Source: Candidatus Onthoplasma sp. (lineage in GTDB: Bacteria; Bacillota; Clostridia; Christensenellales; UBA1242). From it: a stretch of 64,000 nt of DNA. The notes under the pieces were generated by a model, which had not been told where the DNA came from, did not search any database, and was given only the letters and a program-made list of their open reading frames with translations. Shown piece after piece: positions 2,908-64,000 of this stretch. Made by a program: the position numbers and the translations under genes. The number at the start of each line of letters is the position of its first letter. Position 1 is the first letter of the stretch. Location: the NCBI GenBank assembly GCA_045637825.1, contig JAZUAD010000024.1:62202-126201 (forward strand). The letters are read 5' to 3'.

Positions 2908-3570
2908 ATGGAAGAACAAATCGGACTTAGCGTTAATGAATTAGCGCAAATTTTTGCCCAAATTAAAAAAACTGATGACAGAAATTTAGGCGACAAAATT
3001 TATGCTGCTTATCTACCTTTAGTTAGTAAGTTTGCAAAACAATATCACTTAAAGGAGGAAGCTGTTACTGATACTTATACAGAAGTATTTGTTTATGTAT
3101 TTGAAAATACTATAAGCGGACTTATTAATGCTGATAGTTTTGATAGATGTGTAAAAAATATTATGACCAACAAGTGTATTAAACTTAAGAAGAATCAAAC
3201 AATGTTTAAAAGTGAAATGTTGGGAATGACTTATGAAAAGAATATGGAATATAAGGAAAGTGAGGAAACACGTAAAGCTAAAAACGATGAATTTGTTAGT
3301 CAATCATTCTTGTTTGTAACTCAAGTTTTAACTCAATTAAAAGAAAATCCTGAATTGGCTCAAGAAAAAGGTCTAGATGCTGAAAAAATTTCAATGCTTG
3401 AAGACTATTATGGCATTAATTCTGAGCATAAAAGATATAAAGTTCAAGATATTGCAGTAAAGTATAATGTAACTGAATCTAGAGCAACTGCATTACTAAC
3501 AAGGGCTTTAAAGGCATTTAGAGATATGAAGGAATTTCAACCAATTAAAGCACGTTTGCATAGAGGTTAA
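2908..3570 (+). CDS. divergent sigma-70-family-like protein (region 2-like N-terminus, region 4-like HTH C-terminus)
   Basis: 220 aa. YLPLVSKFAKQY...TDTYTEVFVYVFEN resembles sigma regions 2.1/2.2. C-terminal YKVQDIAVKYNVTESRATALLTRALKAFRDM resembles the region 4.2 HTH. No confident subfamily. Confidence 0.35.
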   Translation: MEEQIGLSVNELAQIFAQIKKTDDRNLGDKIYAAYLPLVSKFAKQYHLKEEAVTDTYTEVFVYVFENTISGLINADSFDRCVKNIMTNKCIKLKKNQTMFKSEMLGMTYEKNMEYKESEETRKAKNDEFVSQSFLFVTQVLTQLKENPELAQEKGLDAEKISMLEDYYGINSEHKRYKVQDIAVKYNVTESRATALLTRALKAFRDMKEFQPIKARLHRG

Positions 3571-4057: not shown

Positions 4058-4073
4058 TAATTGATTTCAAAAA

Positions 4074-4101
4074 ATGATGAGAAATTCTCATCATTTTTTT
4101 A
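4074..4101 (+). terminator. rho-independent terminator after rplS
   Basis: ATGATGAGA-AAT-TCTCATCAT followed by a T-run. Confidence 0.8.
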
Positions 4102-4202: not shown

Positions 4203-4769
4203 ATGAACGAAATGGTTAATGAATATATGGATAGTTATAAGCAAGACTTAAACAAAATCTTTAGTAAACTTGAAGATGAATTTAGTATGATTCGTGTTGG
4301 TCGTGCTAATCCTAAAATTGTTGAAAAAATAATGATTGAGTATTATGGCTCTCGTGTGCCACTATCTCAAGCGGCTAATATCAGCGTGCCAGAAGCAAGA
4401 ATGTTATTAGTATCACCTTGGGACGCGAGTTTGATTAAAGGTATTAAGTCATCTATTGATGAGGCAAACCTAGGCGTTAGTTGTAGTGATGATGGTCAAA
4501 AAATTCGTATCATTTTCCCACAACTTACTGAGGAACGTCGTGTGCAATATAGTAAAGAAGCTCGCAAAACTTTGGAAAACTACAAAATAACAATGCGTAA
4601 TGCTCGTCGTGATATTTTGGATATATTTAAGGAAATGAAAAAGGACTCTGAAATTAGTGAAGATGAGTACAACACCTTAGATAAATCAGTACAAAAATGT
4701 TTAGATGATATTACAGCAAAAGCAGATACTGCTTGCGATAAAAAAGTGGCAGAAATAATGGAAGTTTAG
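4203..4769 (+). CDS. frr: ribosome recycling factor
   Basis: ATG 4203 (GGAGGA RBS upstream). 188 aa. RRF pattern (IRVGRANP..LLVSPWD..EERR). Confidence 0.95.
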   Translation: MNEMVNEYMDSYKQDLNKIFSKLEDEFSMIRVGRANPKIVEKIMIEYYGSRVPLSQAANISVPEARMLLVSPWDASLIKGIKSSIDEANLGVSCSDDGQKIRIIFPQLTEERRVQYSKEARKTLENYKITMRNARRDILDIFKEMKKDSEISEDEYNTLDKSVQKCLDDITAKADTACDKKVAEIMEV

Positions 4770-4829
4770 TTTGTTATAATTATTTATAACACAACCAAGT
4801 TTTAACGGATAAAGTTTAAGGAGTAGATT

Positions 4830-5729
4830 ATGAAAAAAAGAGCAATTTCTAGCATTTTTATTATGCTTGCAATAGTTTTGGCGATTGCGTCTAAATTTTT
4901 AGTTGGTGAAGTTTTTGATATTTTTGTGGCTGTTATAGGTATTGTGGGCGCACTAGAAATGTGTAATATGCTAGAAAAGAAAGGTATTAAAGTTAGCAGA
5001 TTTTTAAGTAGTATGTTTATAGTAGTGCTGTATTTTGCAGTAGTTATAGGTCTTAACACTATGGCAGATTTGAAATTAGCATTTTTGTATATTTTAGATG
5101 CCTTTTTGTTGTATGTGTTTGTAATATTTATATACGAACTAATTGTTAATAAGCAAGATAGAATAGGTAGCGCTTTAACTATAACTTTAAATTCATTAAG
5201 AGTTATGGTTTATCCAGGATTGTTACTTTCAATCTTCTTTGTAATTAACCATATTGAGGCGTTTACAACAGTTAATATTAAGGTGCCATATTTATCATTG
5301 ATATTGATAGTATTTATTTGGGGTATAGCGCTACTTAGTGATACGTTTGCATACCTTGTGGGTAGTACTTTACGTGGACCAAAACTTTGTCCTAAAATTA
5401 GCCCTAACAAAAGTTGGAGCGGGGCAATAGGTGGAGTTATTGGTGGAGTATTGATGGGCGTTATCACTTATCTATTGATTAAAAATATTGATTGCTTAAA
5501 TGTTATTTTAACGTCAACTCATATTAATCTTGCATGGCTTATGGTATTGGGTGGACTTGGTTCAGCAGTTAGTCAAGTTGGAGACATATTTGAAAGTTGG
5601 TTAAAACGTCGTGCTGGCGTTAAAGATTCAGGAAACTTTATGCCTGGCCATGGCGGAATGCTAGACAGAGTTGATGCATTAATGTTCTGTTTGGTGTTTG
5701 TTGGCGGAATATTAATGTTCTTAATTTAA
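4830..5729 (+). CDS. cdsA: phosphatidate cytidylyltransferase
   Basis: 299 aa polytopic membrane protein. C-terminal signature SWLKRRAGVKDSGNFMPGHGGMLDRVD. Confidence 0.9.
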   Translation: MKKRAISSIFIMLAIVLAIASKFLVGEVFDIFVAVIGIVGALEMCNMLEKKGIKVSRFLSSMFIVVLYFAVVIGLNTMADLKLAFLYILDAFLLYVFVIFIYELIVNKQDRIGSALTITLNSLRVMVYPGLLLSIFFVINHIEAFTTVNIKVPYLSLILIVFIWGIALLSDTFAYLVGSTLRGPKLCPKISPNKSWSGAIGGVIGGVLMGVITYLLIKNIDCLNVILTSTHINLAWLMVLGGLGSAVSQVGDIFESWLKRRAGVKDSGNFMPGHGGMLDRVDALMFCLVFVGGILMFLI

Positions 5730-5740
5730 AGAATAAAGCA

Positions 5741-5819
5741 GTGGGGACAAAGCGTGTGATAAATCACACGAAATGCGGAAAGCATTTAAAGGGCGTTAAA
5801 GCCCTTGCTTTGTCCCTAT
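5741..5819. other. compact four-way-junction (cloverleaf-like) element: 10-13 bp closing stem enclosing three 6-bp hairpins with 0-1 nt linkers
   Basis: GGGACAAAGC (5744-5753) pairs with GCTTTGTCCC (5807-5816). Inner hairpins are GTGTGA-TAAA-TCACAC (5754-5769), AAATGC-GGAAA-GCATTT (5771-5787) and AAGGGC-GTTAAA-GCCCTT (5789-5806). It has no tRNA loops and no T-run. Function unknown. Confidence 0.4.
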
Positions 5820-5887
5820 TATAATGCATATAAAAAAGTTTGTATATTTGGACAACTTTATAATATAAATAATATGGGAGAGTAAAA

Positions 5888-7015
5888 GTGAATTATTTAT
5901 TATCTATTGGCTCAAGTTTATCATTTGTGTGGTATATATTAGTTGCAATCTTAGCTCTGCTACTAATGGTAATGATACACGAGTTTGGGCATTATGTTGC
6001 AGGAAAAATGTTGGGCTTTAAAATTAACGAATTTTCGGTAGGTTTTGGTCCTAAAATTTTGCAAAAAAAGAAGAAAAATGGCGAAGTGTTTAGCTTGCGT
6101 ACTATTCCACTAGGTGGTTATTGTGCTTTTGATGGCGAGGACGAAAATTCTAATAGTCCTACAGCGTTTAATAACCAAAAGGCGTGGAAGCGATTAATTG
6201 TGTTATTTATGGGTGCGTTTTTTAACTTCCTATCAGCAATTATATTTTCATATATCTTATTGGTTAGTTGTGGTTACGAACACGTGCAAGTAAAATCAAT
6301 TAATAATACTTCGTTCCAACACCAAGTGGAAAATCACTTAGAAGTAGGCGACCGAATTTATGGTATTAATGGTACAGATTTTGACTTTGTAAGTGATGAT
6401 TATTTTAACAGTTTACTTGGCGATTATGTACGAAATAATCTTGACTTTGAAGAAGATATGTGGACTAGCAATGGGGTAGATTATAGCACTATACCACTAA
6501 ATATTGAGCGTAATGGCAAAAAAATGGTGGTTGAAGGAGTATTACAAAAGCAAATAGTTGATGATGAGGAGGTTTGGAGTTTTGTATCGACCGACACTAA
6601 AGATTTTCAACTAAAAACTTATCGTCACGGATTTGTAGAGGCGATAGGCGAAAGTGTTACATTTACATTCCGTTGGGCACATAAAATTTTGATTATATTA
6701 GGTGATTTGTTTACAGGACAATTATCAGTAACTTCACTAGGTGGTCCTGTAACTACAATTAAAGTTATGGCAGAAACCACACAACAAAGTTATAGTTACT
6801 TGCTAGTATTATTACCTGTAATTGCAGTTAACTTGGCAGTATTTAACTTGCTTCCAATACCTAGTTTGGACGGAGCACGTATGGTATTTGTATTTATTGA
6901 AATGATTAGGCGTAAACCAATAAATCGTGAGGTAGAGGCCTATATTCACGGCTTTGGATTATTGCTATTACTTGGCTTTGTACTAGTGGTAGATGTACTG
7001 CAGTTTGTGCTATAG
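5888..7015 (+). CDS. rseP: RIP (site-2) zinc metalloprotease RseP/RasP
   Basis: 375 aa. HEFGHY zinc motif, PDZ-like middle region, NLLPIPSLDG motif. GTG start with GGGAGAG RBS. Confidence 0.9.
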   Translation: MNYLLSIGSSLSFVWYILVAILALLLMVMIHEFGHYVAGKMLGFKINEFSVGFGPKILQKKKKNGEVFSLRTIPLGGYCAFDGEDENSNSPTAFNNQKAWKRLIVLFMGAFFNFLSAIIFSYILLVSCGYEHVQVKSINNTSFQHQVENHLEVGDRIYGINGTDFDFVSDDYFNSLLGDYVRNNLDFEEDMWTSNGVDYSTIPLNIERNGKKMVVEGVLQKQIVDDEEVWSFVSTDTKDFQLKTYRHGFVEAIGESVTFTFRWAHKILIILGDLFTGQLSVTSLGGPVTTIKVMAETTQQSYSYLLVLLPVIAVNLAVFNLLPIPSLDGARMVFVFIEMIRRKPINREVEAYIHGFGLLLLLGFVLVVDVLQFVL

Positions 7016-7037
7016 GGTATTGTTAATTATAGGTCAA

Positions 7038-7068
7038 AAGCAAAGTGTAAAAATGCACTTTGTTTTTT
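7038..7068 (+). terminator. rho-independent terminator after rseP
   Basis: CAAAGTG-N8-CACTTTG followed by TTTTTT. Confidence 0.75.
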
Positions 7069-7581: not shown

Positions 7582-9114
7582 ATGGATATTTTAAAGCATT
7601 TAGCAAGTTATGAAGGATTAAAACTTAAAGAAGTATTGTTTAATAAGGGAGTTAGGAAGTTGACTGCCACATTTTTATATAATCCTACGCTGTTTGTGGT
7701 GGCTGATAAAGTAGAGGAAATCGAAACTTTGTTAAAAGGACTTGTGCCTGAAGATGTGGTAGTGGAAACTAAATTTATTCGCAGTAATTTGGACAAAGCC
7801 AATATTGCACTATTTTTACTTAATGCAGTTACAAACAATTTCCCGAGTCTTGCTAAAAACTTTTCACTAGATGATATCAAACTTGATATTGATAGCAGTA
7901 ATGTGAAAGTAGATTTATATATAGACCCTACAGTGTATGATTTTGTTGTTAATAATAGTAGAGAACGTGATATTGAAGATAAGTTAAAAGATAATTTCTT
8001 TGCCGAATTTAAAGTTATATTAAACAAAAAAGCAGACTTTGTAGGTGGCGGTCACGTTGATGCGATTGCTGATAGTAAAGAGTTTAATGAAAGCATTAAG
8101 TTTTTTGAAAATAAGGTGTTATACAAAATTACAAATGTTAACCACATTGTAAACAAGGTTGAATATAATATGGCGCTTGATTTTAGTAAGGTTAACGATG
8201 CTATGAGTAACTGCGCAGTGTGTGGTACGCTTACTAAGTTTGAAAAGCGAACTTATATGCGCAAATCTACACGTAATGGTCGTACTACTGAACAAGAACG
8301 TATATTTTATACCTTTACGCTTATGAACGATGGAAAATATTTAAGTGGTTCAATTTTCCCTCGTATTGCTGAGGAAAAAAAGTGCGAAGTGGTAGAGGCA
8401 GGTCGTAAGGTTGCGATGTTTGGTAAGTTTGATAATTATAAAGGTAGACTTAACTTTACCGCAGACAGTTTATGTATATGTGACTTTGAAAAATATGTGC
8501 CACGTGTTGAATTTAAGCACGTAAACCAAAATTATCATACGATTATTCCAGAACCTTATGAAGATTTTGAGCAAGGGAATATGTTTGGTGAAGAAGGTAC
8601 TAATATTCCAAAAGAAGTAATGGAAAAAGATTATGTGGTATTTGACTTTGAAACCACAGGGCTGGAAAGCGCTAAGGACGAAATTATTGAAATAGGTGCG
8701 GTAAAGATAAGCAAAGGTAAAATTGTATCTACCTTTTCAACATTTATAAAACCAAGTGTTCCTATTCCTGCCGAGATTACTGAACTAACTCATATAACTG
8801 ATGATATGGTGGCGGACGCCCCAGCAATTAACTATGTATTGCCAGATTTTTACAAATATTGCTATGGTTGTACTTTGGTTGCTCAAAATATTTCTTTTGA
8901 CTATGGATTTTTGAATGCTATAGGTAAGAAAATGCTGTATAATTTTGATAATCCTCAATATGACACAATGGTTATGGCTCGTAATAAATTAAGAGGGCTA
9001 AAGAACTACAAACTAGGCACTATTTGTGATTATTTGGGTGTATCATTAGTGGGTGCACATCGTGCGGTAAACGATTGCCTTGCTACTGCAAAAGTATTTT
9101 TGAAATTAATTTAA
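7582..9114 (+). CDS. PolC-derived protein: PolC-type N-terminal and OB-like regions fused to a DnaQ-like 3'-5' exonuclease; no PHP or polymerase core
   Basis: 510 aa. Exo I YVVFDFETTGL, Exo II VAQNISFDYGFL, Exo III HRAVNDC, all collinear with the B. subtilis PolC exonuclease segment. The ORF ends right after Exo III. It sits at the syntenic polC position between rseP and rimP. Confidence 0.7.
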   Translation: MDILKHLASYEGLKLKEVLFNKGVRKLTATFLYNPTLFVVADKVEEIETLLKGLVPEDVVVETKFIRSNLDKANIALFLLNAVTNNFPSLAKNFSLDDIKLDIDSSNVKVDLYIDPTVYDFVVNNSRERDIEDKLKDNFFAEFKVILNKKADFVGGGHVDAIADSKEFNESIKFFENKVLYKITNVNHIVNKVEYNMALDFSKVNDAMSNCAVCGTLTKFEKRTYMRKSTRNGRTTEQERIFYTFTLMNDGKYLSGSIFPRIAEEKKCEVVEAGRKVAMFGKFDNYKGRLNFTADSLCICDFEKYVPRVEFKHVNQNYHTIIPEPYEDFEQGNMFGEEGTNIPKEVMEKDYVVFDFETTGLESAKDEIIEIGAVKISKGKIVSTFSTFIKPSVPIPAEITELTHITDDMVADAPAINYVLPDFYKYCYGCTLVAQNISFDYGFLNAIGKKMLYNFDNPQYDTMVMARNKLRGLKNYKLGTICDYLGVSLVGAHRAVNDCLATAKVFLKLI

Positions 9115-43256: not shown

Positions 43257-44159
43257 ATGCAAAAGATAGTAATAATTACAGGTTTTACTGGTTCTGGTAA
43301 AAGCGGGTTAGCAGTAGAAATTGCAAAAAAATATAATGGTGAAATAATTTCGTGTGATTCGGTGCAAATATATAAAGGACTTAATATAGGTTCTGCAAAA
43401 GTTACCGAGGAGGAGATGCAAGGCATACCACACTACCTTATAGATATAGTAGAACCAACTAAAGATTATAGCGTGGGTCAATTTGTTAAAGATTGTGAAA
43501 AGGCAATCCATACAATTATCGCCAAAGGTAAACTACCTATACTGGTAGGTGGTACTGGCTTATATATTAAGGCCTTACTTCAGGGCTATAGTTTTAATAA
43601 TGCCGATAAAAATGAGGAATTTAGACAACGTCAATTTGCTTTGGCTGAACAATATGGTAATCAATATGTTTGGGAACAATTACATAAAATTAATCCAAAT
43701 AAGGCAAAAACGGTACATTATAATAACCTAAAACGAGTGGTTAGATATTTGGAAATTGAAACTTTTGGCGACAACACAACCACAACAGATAGCGTGCTTA
43801 AAGATTATAATACTCTAGCAATAGGTGTTATAGGTGAACGAGAAATGATTTATAACCGAATTAATAAGCGTGTGGACATAATGTTTGATATGGGCTTGGA
43901 AGAAGAAGTTAAGGGATTAATAAATCAAGGTTTAACGCTAGAACATAATTGTATGAACACAATAGGTTATAGGGAAATGTTACAATACTTGCAAGGCGAA
44001 ATTGATTATAACAAATGCGTTGAATTAATTAAGCAACATACACGTAATTATTGCAAACGTCAACTTACATTTATGAAATCGATGCCAGAATTAAAATTGC
44101 TTAATGTGATGGAAGCACAAAAGGAAATAGAGGAGTTTTTAAATGATAAAACTAAATAA
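43257..44159 (+). CDS. miaA: tRNA dimethylallyltransferase MiaA
   Basis: 300 aa. P-loop GFTGSGKS, DSVQIYKGLNIGSAK. Confidence 0.9.
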   Translation: MQKIVIITGFTGSGKSGLAVEIAKKYNGEIISCDSVQIYKGLNIGSAKVTEEEMQGIPHYLIDIVEPTKDYSVGQFVKDCEKAIHTIIAKGKLPILVGGTGLYIKALLQGYSFNNADKNEEFRQRQFALAEQYGNQYVWEQLHKINPNKAKTVHYNNLKRVVRYLEIETFGDNTTTTDSVLKDYNTLAIGVIGEREMIYNRINKRVDIMFDMGLEEEVKGLINQGLTLEHNCMNTIGYREMLQYLQGEIDYNKCVELIKQHTRNYCKRQLTFMKSMPELKLLNVMEAQKEIEEFLNDKTK

Positions 44160-45387
44160 TAGAGTTAAGGAATTTGTACAAAATAACGAGCAATTATGTA
44201 CTGCTCGTTTTGAACAAATTGAAGATATTGAGTTTAGCAATCAATTAAAGGTACTTAATGCTTTTAATGAGGCAGGACTAGCAGAACGTCATTTTATAGG
44301 CAGTTACGGCTATGGTCATGGCGATATTGGTAAAGATATTACCAATCAAATTTTTGCCACGATTTTTAACACTCAGTCGGCAATTGCTTCGCCAATGCTT
44401 ACTTGTGGTACTGCTACAATTTCACATACTTTACTTGGAATATTGCGTCCAAATGATTTGATGTTGTGTGTTAGCGGAACTCCTTATGACACATTAAAAG
44501 ATGTACTGTTTGGAACAAGCGAAGATGTTGGCAGTTTAAAAGATTTTGGTATTAAATATGACCAAATTGACCTTGTAAATAACGATTTTGACTATGATAA
44601 TATTGTAAAATATTTAACCAATAATCAAGTTAAAATGCTGTATGTTCAACGTTCTCGTGGATATGAGTGGCGAAACGCCATTAATATTAATCAAATGTCT
44701 AAATTGTTTAAATTGGTGCGTAGTGCAAGTCCTAAAACTATAATAGTGGTAGATAATTGCTATGGTGAATTTGTTGAAAAATTAGAGCCAACTGATGTGG
44801 GCGCTGATATTGTAATGGGTTCTATGATTAAAAATATTGGTGGTGGCATAGCGCCAACTGGTGGTTATGTTGCAGGTAAGGAAAAATTGATTAATATGAT
44901 TGCTTGTCATTTATTTTCACCTGCGTTAGGTATTGATTCAGGCTCTTATAGTGAGGGCTATAAGTTGATTTTACAAGGATTGTTTGTAGCACCGCATATA
45001 GTTGCACAAGCAAAAAAAGTGGCAGTATTAACTTCGCAATGTGTTAATGCTTTGGGTTATGAAACAATACCTAGTAAAAACCAAGTAATGAGTGATATTG
45101 TATGCTCAATCAAGTTTGGCAATCCAGATATTCTTATTAAATTTTGCAGAAGTATACAACATAGTTCTCCAGTAGATAGCAATACCTTGCTAGAACCTAG
45201 TGAGATGTCTGGCTATGAGGACAAAATTATTATGGCATCTGGTAGTTTTAATCAAGGTTCAAGCATTGAACTTTCGTGTGATGCACCAATTCGTGAGCCA
45301 TATATTGCATATTTACAAGGTAGTTTAAGTTATTCTCATGGAAAAATTGCATTAATTAATGCTTTACAAAATACATTTGAATTTTAA
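44143..45387 (+). CDS. ynbB: YnbB/aluminium-resistance family PLP-dependent protein (Cys/Met metabolism fold)
   Basis: 414 aa. Family-typical GYGHGDIGKD and SMIKNIGGGIAPTGGY segments. Confidence 0.7.
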   Translation: MIKLNNRVKEFVQNNEQLCTARFEQIEDIEFSNQLKVLNAFNEAGLAERHFIGSYGYGHGDIGKDITNQIFATIFNTQSAIASPMLTCGTATISHTLLGILRPNDLMLCVSGTPYDTLKDVLFGTSEDVGSLKDFGIKYDQIDLVNNDFDYDNIVKYLTNNQVKMLYVQRSRGYEWRNAININQMSKLFKLVRSASPKTIIVVDNCYGEFVEKLEPTDVGADIVMGSMIKNIGGGIAPTGGYVAGKEKLINMIACHLFSPALGIDSGSYSEGYKLILQGLFVAPHIVAQAKKVAVLTSQCVNALGYETIPSKNQVMSDIVCSIKFGNPDILIKFCRSIQHSSPVDSNTLLEPSEMSGYEDKIIMASGSFNQGSSIELSCDAPIREPYIAYLQGSLSYSHGKIALINALQNTFEF

Positions 45388-45389
45388 AT

Positions 45390-45421
45390 AAAAAAATATC
45401 TCATTACGAGATATTTTTTTC
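45390..45421. terminator. bidirectional terminator at the convergence of the plus- and minus-strand gene blocks
   Basis: AAAAAATATCTC-ATTAC-GAGATATTTTTTT. Confidence 0.8.
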
Positions 45422-45427
45422 ATTTTA

Positions 45428-47140
45428 TTATAATTCACGCTTTTTAAATACTAGTTTTCCTATCAATAATAGTAGGGTAACAAAGCCAACAACATAAACT
45501 AAACTAATCCATATATTCATACCTTGATATACTATTGTATTAAATAATTTTCCAATAACTGTATTTGAAGTTAATCTAGTGCTTCCAAAATATGCAAATA
45601 GGTTAAGGTTGGTTAAAGGATTAAATCTTAGCCATGAACCAGCGCCAAAGAATATAGGTAAAATTAAATTAACGGCATATATAACCACTCCTACAACCAT
45701 ACTTAGTAGGTCTGATTTTAATACAGCGCTTAGCATCATAGTTAATGCGCTATATACTGCAAATATTAGCAATATGCTTAATATAAACAGTCCTATAAGT
45801 GCAAGTGGGTGAGCAACCAGTACTGAATTTCCGTTGAAAATCATTAATATATTAGCACTATCAAAACCAAACAAAATTCCACCAACTGATAGGGAAGTAA
45901 TGGTTCCAAATATCAACAATATAAACGACATTATTATAATAGCAAGATATTTACCAAAATATAATGAACTTCGCTTAATAGGGCGAATGGCAGTAAAACG
46001 CATTGTGTTATTACTAATTTCGCCTGAAATAGTATGAGCAGAAGCATATATTACAAATATCATTACGGCAATAGTAAATATTGACATAACAAAGAATGTA
46101 AAGTCGTAAGCATTTGCTTTGCCATTAGAGGTATGGGTAAACGATAAACTATTAGCAAAATCGTTAGCAGTACAATGCTTTTGAATATAATAATCATATT
46201 GTACTGACAATTCTTCTTGTTCATACAATGAAACTTTGTTATAACCAACTAAATTAACTCGTGCAGATTTGCTGTTAACATCATTTAAGGCACTAGCACA
46301 CATAGAAACTTGGTAAGAGTTTGTAAATATTTCCACACAATTAACATAGCGGTTAAATAATTCGTTAAGTTCATTTTTAGTTTTAATATCTTGTTCTAAA
46401 GTAGAATCTTGACTTACTTTTTGTTTTAAAGCATCTATTTTAATAACAATTTCTTCCATACGAGAAGTAATTAAGGTGTAGTAGGTCCCTGTTTTAGTAT
46501 ACTTTTTGGCAGTATCATTAAGGTTTGGATAAATTAATTCCTTAATACTTTTATACAAAGGTGTGCGTAGCTCATTAAAATATCTTTCACTTGCAAAAGT
46601 ATGGCTAAGTGGGGAAGTGTAGTTAATGATTATCTTATTAATAGCCGAATAAAGCTTTGTATAATTATTATTAGTAGTTAAAACATAATATCCAGTTTTG
46701 TTTTTAGTATATTCTAGTGCTTCATCTAAAGAAGTTTTTAATTTAGTTAAACTTTCATTTATACCTACTAGCAAAACGCTATATTCATCATCTGCAAGAT
46801 TTGGCTCATTATAAAGTATACAATATTCATCAAACTTAGTAAGCAAATTATTAATTTCTTCTTTATTATACTTAGTGTAGGTAGGTGAAGATGTAACATA
46901 AGTACTAGCATCATCAGCAATATTTTCAATAGATAATAAATAGTCTTGTTTTAAGTTGTTAAATGAGGTGTGCATATCACTTATAGTTTCGCCAACCAGT
47001 GAATGGGTGGTGACAGAGCGTTCAATAGGGTCATACATAAAAATGCCAGCTACTAACACACCGGCTAAAAGAATGGCTAGAATATATATCCCTATACGAG
47101 ATACAAGTTTTTTTAGTTCAAAACCAATAACTTTTCCCAT
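45428..47140 (-). CDS. ABC-2 type transporter permease with a large (about 300 aa) extracytoplasmic domain after TM1
   Basis: 570 aa. N-terminal TM, long soluble region, then 5 C-terminal TM segments. Directly downstream of the ATPase gene. Confidence 0.65.
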   Translation of the reverse strand: MGKVIGFELKKLVSRIGIYILAILLAGVLVAGIFMYDPIERSVTTHSLVGETISDMHTSFNNLKQDYLLSIENIADDASTYVTSSPTYTKYNKEEINNLLTKFDEYCILYNEPNLADDEYSVLLVGINESLTKLKTSLDEALEYTKNKTGYYVLTTNNNYTKLYSAINKIIINYTSPLSHTFASERYFNELRTPLYKSIKELIYPNLNDTAKKYTKTGTYYTLITSRMEEIVIKIDALKQKVSQDSTLEQDIKTKNELNELFNRYVNCVEIFTNSYQVSMCASALNDVNSKSARVNLVGYNKVSLYEQEELSVQYDYYIQKHCTANDFANSLSFTHTSNGKANAYDFTFFVMSIFTIAVMIFVIYASAHTISGEISNNTMRFTAIRPIKRSSLYFGKYLAIIIMSFILLIFGTITSLSVGGILFGFDSANILMIFNGNSVLVAHPLALIGLFILSILLIFAVYSALTMMLSAVLKSDLLSMVVGVVIYAVNLILPIFFGAGSWLRFNPLTNLNLFAYFGSTRLTSNTVIGKLFNTIVYQGMNIWISLVYVVGFVTLLLLIGKLVFKKREL

Positions 47141-47148
47141 ATTTCCTC

Positions 47149-48078
47149 CTAAAACAAGTCACTAGACGAATTATTATTAATTAAATCAAAGTAAATTTGT
47201 TCTAACGACTTATAAATTTTTGTAGTTTTGTATATTTTAATGTGTTTATATGTAAGGAAAGTGATTATACTAGCCAAATATTGTTCTTTAATAGGCACAA
47301 TAATGGTATTGCCAGCCACTTTTACATTAATCTTATATTTACGATTTAATAATTGTCCAGCATAGTTAGGATAATTTACATACATACACACACGTTGATT
47401 ATTTTCTAATTGCTTAGAAATATCGCTCATATTTCTAAAACTTAGCAATTTGCCTGAACGTAACACCGCTATTTGATTGCATATTTGTTCCAGTTCTGCA
47501 AGATTATGACTAGAAATTATAATAGCCATTTTTTCACGCTTTGCCAATAAGGTTAATAGGTTACGAATATCCTTAATTCCCTCTGGGTCCAAGCCATTTG
47601 TTGGCTCATCTAATATTAATAGTTTTGGTTTGTTTAACATTGCTTGAGCAATACCTAAACGTTGCTTCATACCTAGGGAGTAGGTGGATACCTTTTTATT
47701 AATAAACTCTTCCATTTTTAAAATTTTAATAATATTAGGTATACGAGCCAAAGCGGATTTGCCATAAAACTTGGCAAATAATTTTAAATTTGCCTTTCCT
47801 GAAAGGTAAGGATATAGTTGGGGTGATTCTACCACAGCACCTACTTGAGAAATTGCTTTTGTAAAGTTTTTTTCTACACTATAACCATTAATAAAAATAC
47901 TACCAGAAGAAATACTGGTAAGACCACAAATCATTTTAATAGTAGTAGATTTACCAGCACCATTTGGACCAATAAATCCAAAAATTTCACCCTCAAATAA
48001 CATTAAGGAAAGGTTATCTACAACCTTTTTGTTATTATATACTTTTGAAACATTATTTAATTTTAATACTGGAATCAA
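47149..48078 (-). CDS. ABC transporter ATP-binding protein
   Basis: Walker A GPNGAGKST, signature YSLGMKQRL, Walker B LLILDEPT. Confidence 0.9.
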   Translation of the reverse strand: MIPVLKLNNVSKVYNNKKVVDNLSLMLFEGEIFGFIGPNGAGKSTTIKMICGLTSISSGSIFINGYSVEKNFTKAISQVGAVVESPQLYPYLSGKANLKLFAKFYGKSALARIPNIIKILKMEEFINKKVSTYSLGMKQRLGIAQAMLNKPKLLILDEPTNGLDPEGIKDIRNLLTLLAKREKMAIIISSHNLAELEQICNQIAVLRSGKLLSFRNMSDISKQLENNQRVCMYVNYPNYAGQLLNRKYKINVKVAGNTIIVPIKEQYLASIITFLTYKHIKIYKTTKIYKSLEQIYFDLINNNSSSDLF

Positions 48079-48231
48079 AATTTAATACCCCTTTTTTGTT
48101 CTCTATTAATAATATTAGCATATTTTTTTATAAATGTAAATAAAATAAAAATAATTTAAAAAGTTTATTATAATATTTAAACTATGTTTAAAAACAGATA
48201 TATAAGCAAATTATAAATATATTAAGGAAGT

Positions 48232-49101
48232 ATGAAAAGCAGGGAATTTCACGATAGTATTTTAATGATTGTAGCAATGCTTGTGCTATTTAGCATAATG
48301 TTTTTTAATGTGTTTATTTTTCTTAATAACGTATTGTGGCTTAATATAACGCTTTATGCCATAATTTGCGCATTAATAATACTGACAATTTTTGGTTATT
48401 TGTTGCATAAAGAAACCTATTTAAAGTTAAGTGTTGTGGCAAGTATTGTGCTTATATTAGTTTATATAATGTATTTTGTATTAGTCAAAACTCACTTACT
48501 GGAACAAATTACATCATTTGATGATTTAAGACAATTAATACTGGGCTTTAAAGGGTGGGGGTTATTTACTTATGTTATAATCAACTTGTTACAATGTGTA
48601 ATTATTCCTGTCCCTACAACGTTAACAGTATTAGTAGGTTCTGCCATTTATGGACCAGCTCAAGCATTTTTGTATGCTACTATAGGTGTTATTTTAGGGT
48701 CAAGCATAGCGTTTTGTATAGGCAGATATTGCTCTCGTCCTGTAATTAATTGGATATTTGGCAAAGAAAAGATAGATAAATATCAAAATGTATTAAACAA
48801 ACGTGCCGAATTAATACTTTTTTTAACTTTAACACTGCCATTTTTTCCAGATGATTTAATATGTATGATGGCTGGAATAACGGATATTAAATACTTTAAA
48901 TTTTTACTAATTTCAATCTTTGCCAGAGGGGTGGGGTTGGCTACTATTAGTTTTTTTGGTAGTGGTAAAATTATACCCTTTTCGGGGTGGGGAATTGCTG
49001 TGTGGCTGGTAATAGGTATTGCTGTTATTGCTATAGGTATACTTTCCTTTAAAAAGAGAGATCGAATTAAAAAATTTTTAAGATTAGATGGTTCTAGATA
49101 A
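48232..49101 (+). CDS. TVP38/TMEM64 (DedA-related) family membrane protein
   Basis: 289 aa polytopic. PFFPDDLICMMAG family-type motif. Confidence 0.7.
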   Translation: MKSREFHDSILMIVAMLVLFSIMFFNVFIFLNNVLWLNITLYAIICALIILTIFGYLLHKETYLKLSVVASIVLILVYIMYFVLVKTHLLEQITSFDDLRQLILGFKGWGLFTYVIINLLQCVIIPVPTTLTVLVGSAIYGPAQAFLYATIGVILGSSIAFCIGRYCSRPVINWIFGKEKIDKYQNVLNKRAELILFLTLTLPFFPDDLICMMAGITDIKYFKFLLISIFARGVGLATISFFGSGKIIPFSGWGIAVWLVIGIAVIAIGILSFKKRDRIKKFLRLDGSR

Positions 49102-49131
49102 TAAAAAAAGCGTATTTAAGTGATACGCTTT

Positions 49132-50514
49132 TTATTTAGTTCTAAAGTTTTTAAATAATAAAATACTATACATAAAATCTAAAATTATTACGCAACTAAA
49201 TAGCATAGGAGCATAAAAACTAGCAAAATTTACTATTTTAAAGATATTAGATACTTGGCTTACATTGGATAGATTATATGCAATAATTATAATAACAAAA
49301 GTCAAAAATAGTGAGATTTTTATCCATAAATTACGTGAAACCGAGTATTTAAAGGGCTTAGAACAATATTTTAACCTAATTTTATTAATATTTGATATAA
49401 GCAAAGCAGGGTATAAGATAATTATCAAACACACTAATATTGCCGATATATAATATAGGGCACTATAGGAATATTTGTTACATAATACGATAGTTGCAAT
49501 AAACATTAAAAGCAATGTAACGCAAGTAATACTCATTTTTTGTATACGTTTAGTAATAGCTTGTTTACGTTTAATAGATGCCTTGTCTTTATCAAAATCA
49601 ATGTAATCTACATATTTAATTTCATCATCTTGTTCTTTAGAAACTTCCTCTAAAGGTTCTTTATTAAACTCTTCGATTTGTTTAACCATTTCTGGGTTAG
49701 GGGATAATTGCTCATAAAGTTTGTTTTCTGTCACATCAGGTATAATTGGTTCAATTTTTTCAAACAATTTAATATCTTCTTTCTCGTCAGCGTCAGTATT
49801 TGTAATATCCTCTTTTTTCTTAGAACTTTCTAAGGGTTCGCTATCGTCATATTCAATAGCGTCAAATATACTTATTGGTTTATTTGCAGGATCTTCCTCA
49901 ACAATTACTTCAGTAACAACCACGCTTTCTTGCTCTTCTTTTTGTTCTTTGGTAATTGTTTCAATAGGAGAGGTTGAATTACTAATACTTTGTGTCAAAT
50001 CAATATGTATTGGCTTTATTTCATTGTTGTCTTTAATGGTATTAAGGTTTTCATCCAAATTAACCTGTGTATCGTTAGATATTATAGTTTCTATTTTAAT
50101 TTCCTCAGTTATGATAGGGGATACGCTGGTTTCAATATTATTAGGTTGAATATCCGCAATTTTTTCAGGTTCTGGTTGAAAAGAGGCCTTTGCTTTAATC
50201 TCATCTAAAGTTAATCCTTCCTTGGTTAAAGTATCAGTTAATAATTGCTCAAAAGAAGGGTAGGTGCTAAGTTGCGCCTTACCATTATCAGTTAATTTAT
50301 AATAATGACGTTTACCCCCAATTTCACTATCTTGCCAATAGGAAGAAATAAACCTGCCTTGTTCAAGTTTTTTCAAAATACTATACAATGTGGGTTGTTT
50401 TATGGTGATTTTGCCATTAGAACTATCTTCTATTTGCTTAATAATCTCATAACCATATCTATCACCATTTACAAGTTGATACAAAATAATAGGAATTAAC
50501 TCAGCAGTTTTCAT
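49132..50514 (-). CDS. PadR-family winged-helix regulator fused to an acidic linker and a C-terminal multi-TM domain
   Basis: 460 aa. N-terminal YGYEIIKQI..LYSILKKLEQGRFISSYW..GGKRHYYKLT. E/D-rich middle region. Four C-terminal hydrophobic segments. Confidence 0.7.
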   Translation of the reverse strand: MKTAELIPIILYQLVNGDRYGYEIIKQIEDSSNGKITIKQPTLYSILKKLEQGRFISSYWQDSEIGGKRHYYKLTDNGKAQLSTYPSFEQLLTDTLTKEGLTLDEIKAKASFQPEPEKIADIQPNNIETSVSPIITEEIKIETIISNDTQVNLDENLNTIKDNNEIKPIHIDLTQSISNSTSPIETITKEQKEEQESVVVTEVIVEEDPANKPISIFDAIEYDDSEPLESSKKKEDITNTDADEKEDIKLFEKIEPIIPDVTENKLYEQLSPNPEMVKQIEEFNKEPLEEVSKEQDDEIKYVDYIDFDKDKASIKRKQAITKRIQKMSITCVTLLLMFIATIVLCNKYSYSALYYISAILVCLIIILYPALLISNINKIRLKYCSKPFKYSVSRNLWIKISLFLTFVIIIIAYNLSNVSQVSNIFKIVNFASFYAPMLFSCVIILDFMYSILLFKNFRTK

Positions 50515-50695
50515 AATAACTCCTTTTAATAATTATAAAATATAATACAACTTATTGTCAAATAATTTTAATAACTTGTATCCAAAACTAATGGCTAGAA
50601 TACTGATTGGCAGGGGAAGATACGTCGATTTACATTATAAACAATAAAAGAGTTAATACAAAACTTCAAATAGGGGAATAAAATGGACAATATTA

Positions 50696-50740
50696 ATCTA
50701 TTCGTAAAATACAGATTTTACGAATAGATATGTCTTTTTT
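50696..50740 (+). terminator. perfect 15-bp-arm palindrome plus T-run (terminator-like), carrying two inverted copies of the variant motif ATTTTACGAATAGAT
   Basis: ATCTATTCGTAAAAT-ACAG-ATTTTACGAATAGAT (50696-50729), then ATGTCTTTTTT. Confidence 0.4.
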
Positions 50741-51098
50741 CATAATATATTTTTAAAATTTGATTAATTGTTTAATTTTTGTATCTTTCAGCAATGTTTA
50801 AGTTTTTATAGATTTTATTATTATGTTATATTAGATTTTTATTTTCGACCTACATTTTATTACATTGCATTACAATCAATATCAATTAACACTATAAAAG
50901 GTTTTAAGTATTATAATTTCACGTGTTGTGTTTGTAGTTTTATTAAAAAAGGATATTTTATATATTTGTTGTTATAAACCTTAAATTTTAACAAACTTTC
51001 GGTCGACCAAATCCTTATCTTTTTATAACATCTCGGCTCTCAGAGCATTTTAGAAATTTGACTAATGTGACTAATATATACGAGTTGTAATGTTTTTA

Positions 51099-51134
51099 TA
51101 AAAAAGACCCAAACCATAAGTTTAAGTCTTTTTT
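51099..51134 (-). terminator. serS terminator (minus strand)
   Basis: On the minus strand: AGACTTAAAC-TTATG-GTTTGGGTCT (two G.U pairs) followed by TTTTTT. Confidence 0.7.
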
Positions 51135-51184
51135 AAAATTTTATTAAATTCAATACATTGTGTGCATCTAAATTATTATACGCT

Positions 51185-52477
51185 TTATTTTGTGGTTTTA
51201 GGTAAAATTACAGATTTTCCACCCATATAAGGTCTAAGCACTTCAGGTACAGTAATTGAACCATCTTGATTGTAGTTGTTTTCAACCAAAGCAATTAAAC
51301 CACGAGGACTTGCTATAACTGTATTATTTAAAGTATGAACCAAATAGGTTCCGTTTTCGCCTTTGGTACGAATATTAAGTCTACGAGCTTGAGCATCGCC
51401 AAGAGTTGAACAAGAACATACTTCAAAGTATTTTTGTTGACGAGGACTCCACGCTTCAATATCGCAAGACTTAACCTTTAAGTCAGCCAAGTCGCCAGAA
51501 CAACAATCTAGTTGTCTTACAGGGATATTCATATTATTAAATATTTCAACCGAATAAGACCACATTTTGTTATACCAATCCATACTTTCTTCAGGTTTAC
51601 ACAAAACAATCATTTCTTGCTTTTCAAATTGGTGAACTCTGTATACACCACGTTCCTCAATGCCGTGAGAGCCGATTTCCTTTCTAAAACAAGGTGAATA
51701 TGAGGTCATTGTAATAGGCAATTCGCTTTCCTTTACAATTTGGTCCTTAAAGCGACCTATCATACTATGCTCACTAGTGCCGATTAAATATAGGTCTTCA
51801 TTTTCGATTTTGTACATCATAGCGTCCATTTCTTCAAAGCTCATAACTCCTGTTACAACATCACTACGAATCATAAATGGCGGAATACAATAGGTAAATC
51901 CTTTATCTATCATATAATCTCTGCCATAAGCAATCATAGCTTCATGAAGTCTAGCAATATCTCCCATCAAGTAATAAAAACCAGCACCACTAGTACGTCC
52001 AGCACTTTCCTTATCCAAACCGCCAACGCTTTCAAAAATATCAGCGTTATAAGGGATTTCATAACTAGGAACCTTGGCTTCACCATAACGCTTAACTTCC
52101 ACATTTTCACTATCATCTTTACCAACAGGAACAGTAGCATCAATAATATTAGGTATTGCCATCATATTTTTCTTTAGAGTTAAGCTTAGTTCATTGACCT
52201 TATTTTCTAGTTCGGTTATTTTATTATTAATTTCAACCACTTCTTGCTTTTTAGCATTTGCTTCATCTACTTGTTTATTACGCATAAGAGCGCCAATTTC
52301 ACTACTTTTAGCATTACGACTAGCACGCAAATTATCACATTCTGTGCGCATTTCACGTACTTGTGTATCAAGGGTTAATATTTCATCTACCAAAGGTAAT
52401 TTGTGGTCTTGAAATTTCTTTTTTATATTTTCCTTAACTAACTCGGGATTTTTTCTAATCAAATTTATATCAATCAT
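51185..52477 (-). CDS. serS: serine--tRNA ligase
   Basis: ATG 52477 after AGGAGA. MIDINLIRKNPE N-terminus with coiled-coil arm. Class II core motifs. Confidence 0.95.
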   Translation of the reverse strand: MIDINLIRKNPELVKENIKKKFQDHKLPLVDEILTLDTQVREMRTECDNLRASRNAKSSEIGALMRNKQVDEANAKKQEVVEINNKITELENKVNELSLTLKKNMMAIPNIIDATVPVGKDDSENVEVKRYGEAKVPSYEIPYNADIFESVGGLDKESAGRTSGAGFYYLMGDIARLHEAMIAYGRDYMIDKGFTYCIPPFMIRSDVVTGVMSFEEMDAMMYKIENEDLYLIGTSEHSMIGRFKDQIVKESELPITMTSYSPCFRKEIGSHGIEERGVYRVHQFEKQEMIVLCKPEESMDWYNKMWSYSVEIFNNMNIPVRQLDCCSGDLADLKVKSCDIEAWSPRQQKYFEVCSCSTLGDAQARRLNIRTKGENGTYLVHTLNNTVIASPRGLIALVENNYNQDGSITVPEVLRPYMGGKSVILPKTTK

Positions 52478-62739: not shown

Positions 62740-64000
62740 ATGAATAAATATCTTAAAATATTAACATTGTCTGGAGGTTTAATTGGCGCTATAGCGCCTA
62801 CTGCTATTAATCTTGATAGCAACACACCTTCGGGACTAAAAGCAATGTATGAAAGTGTTGAAAAACTACAAAATACTCTTCCTCGTTTATCTAAAATCAA
62901 CTATAAACTAGATATTAACGCTGAAAATAACACTGATAATGTATCGTTTATTTCTACCGATACCGAGGGAAATGAAACCAAACTATCTAAACAAGAAACT
63001 ATTAATTATTTAAACGAAACTTTAGAACAAACTTCTATTGAATATGAACAATTAAAAGACACTTTAACTAAAGCAATACAAGATACTATGGAATATCTAG
63101 AATCTTATAAAAACGGAAATATAACCTTAACTAATGAACAAAAAATATATATTAAAGAACATAGTAATTCAATTAAATATCTAGCTGAAACTTTGGAAGA
63201 TTTAAGTGAAGATATTATTTGCGCTATTGATGGTTGCGAAGATGAAGTTGAGGATTTTGATACTACGACACGCTCTTATATGCAAGCTATTAATAATATT
63301 GAAGCTAGAATTCAGGCACTACACGAAGCAATCAGTTCATTACAATTTATTAATAGTAGTCCTTTCTTTTTTAGACAACACATTAACCCTAATCATATAG
63401 TATATGGTTTTCATTATAATAGCGAATTAGATAATGATAATTCGGAACAATCTAATCTAGATTCTGTTGAAGAAGATAAAGAAAATTTAGATAATAAAGA
63501 TGATATTGATACTATTTTGGAAGTGGAAAATAAAGATAATGATGACACTTTAATTAGTGAAAACAGTGTAAACGAAGATTTAGAAGGAAATAATACTGAA
63601 AATAATGAAGTTGATGATAATGTTAGTGAAGTAACTGATGATACAAATAATAAAGAGAACTCTAACTTAGTTACTGACAACAATGAGGACAAACCAACAA
63701 CTTTTGGTTTAAAGTCAAATATAGATACTTACGCCCCTACTAAGCGTAATATTGATACCTTCTTTAATACAGCCCTACAAAACAATCAATATGGTTATGG
63801 CGGTTATGGCTATGGTATGCCTTACGGATATGGTGGTTACGGTTATGGAATGCCCTATGGTGGCGGATACTATAATACTCCTTATCAAAACTTAAATTCA
63901 AATCTAATTAATCGTAAAGTATTAGAAGTTCAAAATGAGCCCTACTCTAGCTCTGAAGTGGAAAAAAATGAAGTAAACGATAATAACAATAACGATATAG
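62740..64000 (+). CDS. secreted or anchored protein with an acidic D/E/N-rich region and a Gly/Tyr-rich repeat; 3' end beyond the window (absent from the supplied ORF track)
   Basis: ATG 62740 lies 6 nt after GGAGG (62729-62733). I translated 420 codons with no stop to nt 64000. N-terminal signal-like MNKYLKILTLSGGLIGAIAP. Repeat YGYGGYGYGMPYGYGGYGYGMPYGGGYY. Confidence 0.65.
   Translation, partial: MNKYLKILTLSGGLIGAIAPTAINLDSNTPSGLKAMYESVEKLQNTLPRLSKINYKLDINAENNTDNVSFISTDTEGNETKLSKQETINYLNETLEQTSIEYEQLKDTLTKAIQDTMEYLESYKNGNITLTNEQKIYIKEHSNSIKYLAETLEDLSEDIICAIDGCEDEVEDFDTTTRSYMQAINNIEARIQALHEAISSLQFINSSPFFFRQHINPNHIVYGFHYNSELDNDNSEQSNLDSVEEDKENLDNKDDIDTILEVENKDNDDTLISENSVNEDLEGNNTENNEVDDNVSEVTDDTNNKENSNLVTDNNEDKPTTFGLKSNIDTYAPTKRNIDTFFNTALQNNQYGYGGYGYGMPYGYGGYGYGMPYGGGYYNTPYQNLNSNLINRKVLEVQNEPYSSSEVEKNEVNDNNNNDI

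Follow-up and report, generated by a model that had tools for sequence, protein, structure and literature searches.

A single-locus four-way-junction element between cdsA and rseP in Candidatus Onthoplasma, tentatively read as a structural barrier at a transcript end

Repetitive extragenic palindromic (REP) sequences, bacterial interspersed mosaic elements (BIME) and intercistronic stem-loops stabilize the mRNA upstream of them, as do the malE-malF REP of Escherichia coli and the hairpins of the Rhodobacter puf operon. Here, we analyzed an element in a comparable place at positions 5741-5819 (+ strand) of a 64-kb stretch of DNA from Candidatus Onthoplasma sp. (contig JAZUAD010000024.1; the whole stretch is called the window below). 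It lies between cdsA, the gene for phosphatidate cytidylyltransferase, and rseP, the gene for a site-2 protease, and folds in silico into a four-way junction. As with those REP sequences and hairpins, a stable palindromic structure lies here outside the genes, between two co-oriented members of an operon; it presumably acts likewise through structure alone, as a barrier to 3′ exonucleases, and the genes on its two sides could plausibly be expressed at different levels. However, REPs are dispersed in hundreds of copies that share a family consensus, whereas this element is branched and occurs as a single copy at one locus in one clade. Intrinsic terminators, including those with weak U-tracts that are assisted by NusA, resemble it in other respects. 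The element follows a stop codon by a few nucleotides and precedes a promoter-like site, its GC-rich stem base is followed by an A/U-rich tail, its structure rather than its loops is selected, and its stems are as conserved as those of a bona fide terminator. Unlike the simple 3-8-nt loop of a terminator, its "loop" comprises 53 nt in three hairpins; moreover, most copies lack a U-run, and a terminator scan was negative. Transfer RNAs and tRNA-like molecules share the four-helix cloverleaf of about 75 nt. In contrast to them, the element has an "acceptor" of 11 bp, unconserved loops of 3-7 nt, no D- or T-loop signatures and no CCA context. The element falls outside the tRNAs, the Rfam families, the REP and miniature inverted-repeat transposable element (MITE) repeats, the riboswitches and ribozymes, and the invertons. 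In its presumed action it comes closest to the intrinsic terminator and the REP-type mRNA stabilizer, although it is not a simple hairpin and most copies have no U-run.

The RNA fold and a covariance model built from the element (R1) delimit a core at 5743-5817 flanked by two weak outer pairs. The closing stem, P1, is formed by the 5′ arm GGGGACAAAGC (5743-5753) and the 3′ arm GCTTTGTCCCT (5807-5817); by direct reading of the sequence it has 11 bp, of which the outermost is a G·U pair, and it can be extended to 5741/5819 by two more wobble or A-U pairs. It encloses three hairpins of 6 bp each: hairpin 1 (GTGTGA-TAAA-TCACAC, 5754-5769), hairpin 2 (AAATGC-GGAAA-GCATTT, 5771-5787) and hairpin 3 (AAGGGC-GTTAAA-GCCCTT, 5789-5806), with inter-helix linkers of only 0, 1, 1 and 0 nt. 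The minimum free energy (MFE) RNA fold of 5731-5829 (RNAfold) was exactly this four-way junction, at -46 kcal/mol. The anatomy described in an earlier, sequence-only reading of this DNA was thus reached by direct reading and by folding alike. Shuffled versions of the same segment gave -19.7 ± 2.8 kcal/mol (z = -9.3), and none of 200 was as stable. Both strands also adopted this shape when folded as single-stranded DNA (ssDNA; -24.8 and -23.4 kcal/mol). When the window was folded in sliding 90-nt segments, the element was the top outlier (-44.4 kcal/mol compared with a mean of -12.5 and a standard deviation of 4.7). The next most stable locus, at 62761-62850, reached -30.4 kcal/mol (z = -4.5) with a closing stem enclosing two hairpins; it sits in the 5′ part of an open reading frame (ORF) beginning at 62741 and extending past the end of the window. 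That fold is probably incidental, and we rejected kinship with the element on account of its coding-region location. The sequence-only reading had also called the element much more GC-rich than its surroundings; it is indeed richer, although only moderately so (0.45 compared with about 0.31 for the window).

We then asked how widely the element is distributed. Judged by homologues of RseP and the contigs that carry them, the window belongs to Candidatus Onthoplasma (family UBA1242, order Christensenellales). This is an uncultured gut lineage with reduced genomes, mostly smaller than 1 Mb, and a coding density of about 90% (PMC12306168). The cdsA-rseP spacers of 80 genome loci and 17 further contigs, all reached through homologues, yielded 13 distinct sequences of the element (the window, L001, L003, L004, L005, L007, L008, L110, L118, L120, L122, L124 and L133). 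All 13 lie in the cdsA-rseP spacer and share the identical four-way-junction fold; 12 are intact, and the L118 copy is eroded. The element was absent from L002 and L121, whose RseP is 87-88% identical, and from the more distant L006 and L125-L128 (81%), L129-L131 (78%) and L132 (69%). In L129-L131 the spacer instead contains a simple hairpin and a good promoter; this hairpin, AAAAGGCAAAGTGT...ACATTTTGCCTTT at about 1935-1970, is much like the terminator of rseP and is followed by TTGACA-17-TAATAT. In L132 and still more distant relatives, the spacers are mostly 10-100 nt long and unstructured, with an occasional plain terminator hairpin. The carriers formed one clade in the RseP tree, and the simplest history comprises one gain, one loss (in L002/L121) and one inversion, described below. 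Overall, the element is a single-locus, vertically inherited and lineage-specific feature.

One carrier locus, L001, which corresponds to the metagenome-assembled genome KA0021_177 of PMC12306168, additionally holds decayed partial duplicates of the element between cdsA and the intact copy (1059-1205). The unit at 1059-1138 gives its best match on the - strand; it has a closing stem of its own (TGCGAA/TTCGCA), a GTGA/TCAC hairpin and the same AAAATGC-N4-GCATTT hairpin, and a degenerate AAATGC...ACATT follows at 1150-1188. Since one unit has a different closing stem, family members with other stems may exist that escape our anchored scans.

We aligned 12 of the 13 copies on the structure, and 93.9% of the cells in this alignment were paired. 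Hairpins 1 and 3 are variable in sequence, and all of their pairs (6/6 in each, 12/12 together) had changed on both sides; none of 500 shuffles matched this, and slid controls were far lower. The sequence-only reading had proposed a search for homologues with compensatory changes, and such changes are plainly present in these 12 pairs. In contrast, P1 and hairpin 2 are essentially invariant: the core GGACAAAG of the 5′ arm did not vary in any of the 12 aligned copies, the core CTTTGTCC of the 3′ arm is invariant as well, and hairpin 2 varies in its loop. The alignment has 27 invariant columns, every one of them base-paired. Only 5% of the fourfold-degenerate sites of rseP in the same genomes are invariant, with pairwise identities of 40-58%. 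Since synonymous sites are saturated, selection must be maintaining both the fold and the P1 and hairpin 2 sequences. As a calibration, we used the canonical intrinsic terminator that follows rseP (AAAAGCAAAGTG...CACTTTGTTTTT and a T-run, 7036-7067, + strand, found by the terminator scan), which keeps its stem sequence in 8/11 carriers, even in those with an insertion of other DNA ahead of it. Since this ordinary terminator is equally conserved, invariant stems alone do not imply sequence-specific recognition. The loops of the element differ in both sequence and length, and no unpaired position is conserved. A ligand pocket, a catalytic center or a protein that reads the loops is therefore disfavored.

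The core stems contain, among about 320 pairs, 301 Watson-Crick (WC) pairs, 2 G·U pairs and 4 A·C mismatches, with no strand bias; the G·U pairs occur on the + strand only and in the two outermost pairs of P1 only. Hairpins 1 and 3 together show 26 double-change cells compared with 1 one-sided change. The strand asymmetry usual for a selected RNA is lacking.

Moreover, L004, L110 and L133/L134 carry the entire 53-nt interior in the orientation opposite to that of the other ten copies, while the flanks are unflipped and the fold is intact. In 20/20 cross-comparisons of interior orientation the reverse complement was favored, and the third inverted copy was added separately. The inverted interior is fixed in one diverged sublineage, and the ten forward copies form one clade; the inversion is therefore an old single event rather than phase variation. 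P1 and hairpin 2 are palindromic and read the same in reverse, so the inversion is tolerated, and its tolerance indicates that function hangs on the shape, P1 and hairpin 2 rather than on loop sequence or hairpin order. Replication template switching is known to make and repair perfect stems in one step and to invert the sequence between the arms (PMC8794818, PMC8604942). The element shows the corresponding signs, namely one-step WC-to-WC changes, scarce G·U intermediates and inverted inter-arm sequence. It differs in that the loop inversions of Monttinen and Loytynoja 2022 (PMC8794818) are mostly 4-8 nt long, while the "loop" that flipped in the element comprises 53 nt and three hairpins; moreover, template switching is an evolutionary mechanism and not a function. 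The wobble-free covariation and the inversion fit the footprints of template switching between the arms of inverted repeats.

The covariation found here does not establish an RNA gene. The almost purely WC stems, the free loops and junctions and the inversion are easier to reconcile with a structure-only cis element than with a tRNA-like or ligand-binding RNA.

At Rfam 15 gathering scores, no family matched the element in the window or in the 12 other copies, and a local Rfam scan of the element at E <= 10 returned only noise, far under threshold. ARAGORN found no tRNA at the element in the window or in the 12 carrier loci, and the matches of the Rfam tRNA model in the window were its two real tRNAs only. 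The sizes of stems and loops are wrong for a tRNA, which has a 7-bp acceptor, conserved D and T loops and a 7-nt anticodon loop. These results bear out the earlier statement that the element is neither a tRNA nor a member of a known family. The conserved unpaired junction or loop bases of riboswitches and small ribozymes are also missing, with linkers of 0-2 nt and variation in all loops.

The element is not a repeat either. With filters off, R1 scored 90.3 bits on the + strand and 63.8 bits on the - strand at the element and found no second copy in the 64-kb window (about 6% of a genome of about 1 Mb), where the next hit had 17.6 bits; the 788 kb of related loci that were scanned yielded no additional copies. 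Among viral contigs, exact and pattern scans returned 0 true matches, the 18 anchored matches being unrelated lone hairpins in roughly the number expected by chance. A metagenome pattern scan returned 19 stretches, of which only L110 was genuine, at the orthologous locus; this collection is incomplete, as it did not return the element-bearing JGI contigs L122 and L123, and absence from it is weak evidence. Two of the other matches, on the unrelated metagenome contigs L102 (98-167) and L115 (2605-2670), are long perfect hairpins with GGACAAAGCGCAnCGTGTCC...GGACACGCTnCGCTTTGTCC, which look like a separate palindromic family that coincidentally shares the 9-nt scan anchor. No copy was found by blastn against plasmids and phages. 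Comparison of filled and empty sites revealed no direct repeat that would mark a target-site duplication (TSD) around the element, and no transposase or RAYT gene lies beside it, the neighbors being frr, cdsA, rseP and a DnaQ-like gene. We therefore rejected a dispersed REP/MITE-type repeat or mobile element, since the element is single-copy in the DNA scanned and has neither TSD nor transposase/RAYT. The sequence-only reading had offered fortuitous palindromes or a REP-like stabilizer as what a lack of conservation or covariation would point to; this single-locus, conserved and covarying element is neither a chance set of palindromes nor a dispersed REP-like repeat.

Several smaller candidates were also discarded. 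AATGC-N3-6-GCATT occurs outside the element at chance-level frequency, and we rejected hairpin 2 as an operator or recurring motif. The CAAAG/CTTTG stem that the element has in common with the rseP terminator does not define a repeat family; the pattern has 8 hits in the window compared with 4 expected, and only these two hairpins have it, the other hits forming none. A small ORF from the ATG in hairpin 2 was rejected as well, as its frame and length differ among copies and it has no ribosome-binding site (RBS).

Overall, we propose, with less than even confidence, that the element is a structure-only cis element on the tail of the cdsA transcript, which acts as a branched terminator or insulator and/or as a barrier to 3′ exonucleases, and whose stems template switching keeps perfect while selection favors the fold. 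We infer its transcription and its effect on termination or stability. The frr-(uppS)-cdsA message would carry the element as its tail. Its three inner hairpins would fold first, and the 11-bp, GC-clamped P1 would close once the 3′ arm emerges, before the A/U-rich tail. This would leave a rigid knot of about -45 kcal/mol that could reduce or end read-through into rseP, and rseP would then depend on the promoter-like site directly downstream of the element. The knot may also block 3′-to-5′ exonucleases and thereby stabilize the cdsA message, an action known from REP sequences and intercistronic hairpins. What would matter is the shape together with P1 and hairpin 2, leaving the loops and the hairpin order free, so that inversion of the interior would be tolerated. 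Template switching between the inverted-repeat arms would yield WC-perfect stems, one-step double changes and the inversion, with selection for the fold as a filter. The element would have arisen recently in this clade.

The position of the element speaks for such a role. Terminators classically lie where the element does, namely between the end of one gene and the promoter-like site that follows. The cdsA gene (4830-5729, + strand; NCBIfam NF008635, E = 1e-21, and Pfam CTP_transf_1 on orthologues) ends with TAA at 5727-5729, and the GGGG of P1 begins 13 nt past this stop codon. P1 starts 5-17 nt past the cdsA stop in 12/13 copies; in L001 the distance is 154 nt because the extra units precede the intact copy. 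In all copies the GGGG/CCCC clamp of P1 adjoins an A/T-rich tail, which in the window is ATTATAATG (5818-5826, + strand), without a U-run and with TTATAA at 5819-5824 as a possible weak -35. In other lineages the same spacer is short and bare or has a simple terminator hairpin, which we count in favor of a terminator-like function.

Downstream, alignments read by eye show a box, TATATT-T-GGACAA (5843-5855, + strand), that is a possible -10/start region of the rseP promoter. TTATAA-N16-18-TATAWT is present downstream of 8/13 copies, and the best-preserved ones have TTATAA-N17-TATAAT-(A/T)GGACAA within 3-8 nt of the element, about 27-39 nt before the rseP start. A box of the form CATATAWT-WGGACAA(G/C)TTTG lies upstream of rseP in carriers and non-carriers alike. 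We regard the TATAWT-GGACAA box as a candidate rseP promoter, with an operator as the other possible role; a sigma-70 scan found nothing between the element and rseP, the box at 5843-5855 included. The rseP gene itself (5888-7015, + strand; M50 family) has a GTG start and an RBS, GGGAGAG, at 5876-5882. GGACAA also occurs inside the closing stem, whose 3′ arm is its complement. An attenuator-like switch, in which UUGUCC of the 3′ arm would pair with the downstream GGACAA box, was nevertheless rejected, as the box is equally conserved in relatives without the element. The alternative helix would have 6-8 bp compared with the 11-bp P1 and three hairpins, and covariation is uninformative there, the arms being invariant.

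Several observations weigh against a transcript-end barrier. As the sequence-only reading had noted, the tail lacks a canonical U-run: the first 8 nt contain 3-6 T across copies (at least 5 in 5/13, but 4 in the window), and the element of the window was missed by the terminator scan. The true terminators of this genome are simple A-tract/stem/T-run hairpins, and to our knowledge branched terminators are not a recognized class. The close relatives L002 and L006 thrive without any structure in this spacer. We infer the rseP promoter and any 3′ end, as well as that the element is transcribed, and the missing G·U pairs and perfect strand symmetry suit a DNA-level role equally.

An unlikely alternative is that the element is a discrete small structured RNA, or a module recognized by a protein or RNase and cut from the operon transcript, with P1 and hairpin 2 read sequence-specifically; it might serve as a scaffold RNA, for instance, or as a site of processing that separates cdsA from rseP. 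The invariance of P1 and hairpin 2 next to saturated neutral sites is what such recognition would leave, although the ordinary terminator shows the same stem-sequence conservation. The compact, rigid, tRNA-sized architecture and the restriction of G·U to the + strand, in the two outermost P1 pairs, are also in keeping with an RNA. The host genome, moreover, is reduced to about 1 Mb and densely coding, and non-coding DNA that persists in such genomes tends to be functional (PMC12306168). However, riboswitches, ribozymes and protein-binding RNAs have conserved unpaired nucleotides, which the element lacks, and inversion of the interior turned every loop into its complement and was tolerated. No dedicated promoter or terminator was evident in the scan, and the element is restricted to one shallow clade, within which it was lost in L002/L121.

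Less likely still is a role at the DNA level, either as a cloverleaf or cruciform extruded in single-stranded or supercoiled DNA or as symmetric protein-binding boxes. The boxes GGACAAAGC ... AAATGC-N4-GCATTT ... GCTTTGTCC, just upstream of the rseP promoter, could modulate transcription, replication or recombination. Strand symmetry with all-WC stems and essentially no G·U pairs is what a DNA structure would show; both DNA strands fold equally well, and the conserved parts are palindromic and unaltered by inversion. The element also abuts the -35-like box of the putative rseP promoter, where a third GGACAA box lies. However, a double-stranded DNA operator gives no reason for the drifting hairpins 1 and 3 to stay self-complementary, and extrusion of a three-hairpin cloverleaf from duplex DNA would be energetically costly; we know of no precedent for it. 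Additionally, the GGACAA box and the AATGC palindrome recur nowhere else, and no candidate binding protein or recombinase is encoded beside the element. We give the same low weight to an undescribed class of strand-symmetric four-way-junction elements recognized as a shape, in which a protein or RNase would read P1 and hairpin 2 on RNA or ssDNA. The element would then be a regulatory or processing module dedicated to cdsA/rseP, as genes of membrane biogenesis, in the streamlined UBA1242 genomes, and diverged relatives with other closing stems may await detection.

Ranked below these, and improbable, is the absence of any host function, that is, a relic of a small palindromic insertion or a hairpin overgrown by template switching, whose arms are continually re-perfected. 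Template switching can indeed create and maintain perfect stems (PMC8794818), and a relic would account for the patchy occurrence among close relatives, the eroded L118 copy, the decayed partial duplicates in L001, the terminal inverted repeats and the occurrence of both orientations. However, the element is single-copy at a constant locus, with no other in the 64 kb, in the 788 kb of relatives or in the viral, plasmid and metagenome scans, and its carriers are monophyletic. The 27 invariant columns and 12/13 intact copies, compared with saturated synonymous sites, and the deletion pressure on streamlined genomes also oppose it. An inverton, in which a recombinase would use the 11-bp inverted repeats as sites to flip the 53-bp interior, is very improbable: inverted repeats do border a segment found in both orientations, but orientation tracks phylogeny (10 forward copies in one clade, 3 inverted ones in one diverged sublineage), the interior contains no promoter, 53 bp is very short for recombinase synapsis, and no recombinase gene lies nearby.

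The neighborhood of the element is ordered rplS, frr, cdsA, element, rseP, a 510-aa ORF with DnaQ/PolC-N-like features, rimP, nusA and infB, with long-T-run canonical terminators after rplS (4069-4099) and rseP (7036-7067). The sequence-only reading had placed the element in the slot of dxr, which proved to be a mere positional analogy with Bacillus: dxr lies in this spacer in 0 of about 75 related loci, and a dxr remnant is equally unsupported, as no relative has the gene there. The window, like L118, has no uppS (undecaprenyl-diphosphate synthase) gene between frr and cdsA (4769-4830 in the window), where most relatives compared (L120-L133) have a Prenyltransf gene of 236-250 aa. Directly after rseP, at 7582-9114, the C-terminal ~165 residues of the 510-aa ORF match models of the DnaQ/PolC-type 3′-5′ exonuclease, and the N-terminal ~340 residues match no model; relatives keep an RNase_T-domain protein of about 510-540 aa. 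In Bacillus, this slot is that of proS and polC. Upstream of rplS, at 2908-3570 and 2.3 kb upstream of rseP, a 220-aa ORF gives a weak sigma-70/ECF-type match under the curated cut-offs; RseP homologues cleave anti-sigma factors. Farther along the window, at 44000-52000, GC skew changes from positive to negative, with the cumulative maximum near 48-50 kb, and the gene strand bias flips from mostly + to mostly - at the same place, as would be expected of the region around the replication terminus.

The element occurs at a single locus of a single genus-level clade, and its role is probably mundane. If our tentative proposal of a transcript-end barrier is true, few documented elements at transcript ends, or insulators, would share its branched cloverleaf shape; it would be recent in origin and unusually clean, in a genome-reduced gut lineage. 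It also illustrates that template switching at the DNA level can yield strong covariation, with perfect WC stems, no wobble intermediates and a fixed 53-nt loop inversion. Since template switching can produce such covariation, covariation alone is no proof of a functional RNA gene. The 13 sequences and the covariance model provide a means to check metatranscriptomes for a 3′ end or a stable small RNA at this locus. If the element is instead recognized sequence-specifically, it would represent a new structural motif, of RNA or of DNA, with links to the synthesis of phospholipids and the expression of the site-2 protease.

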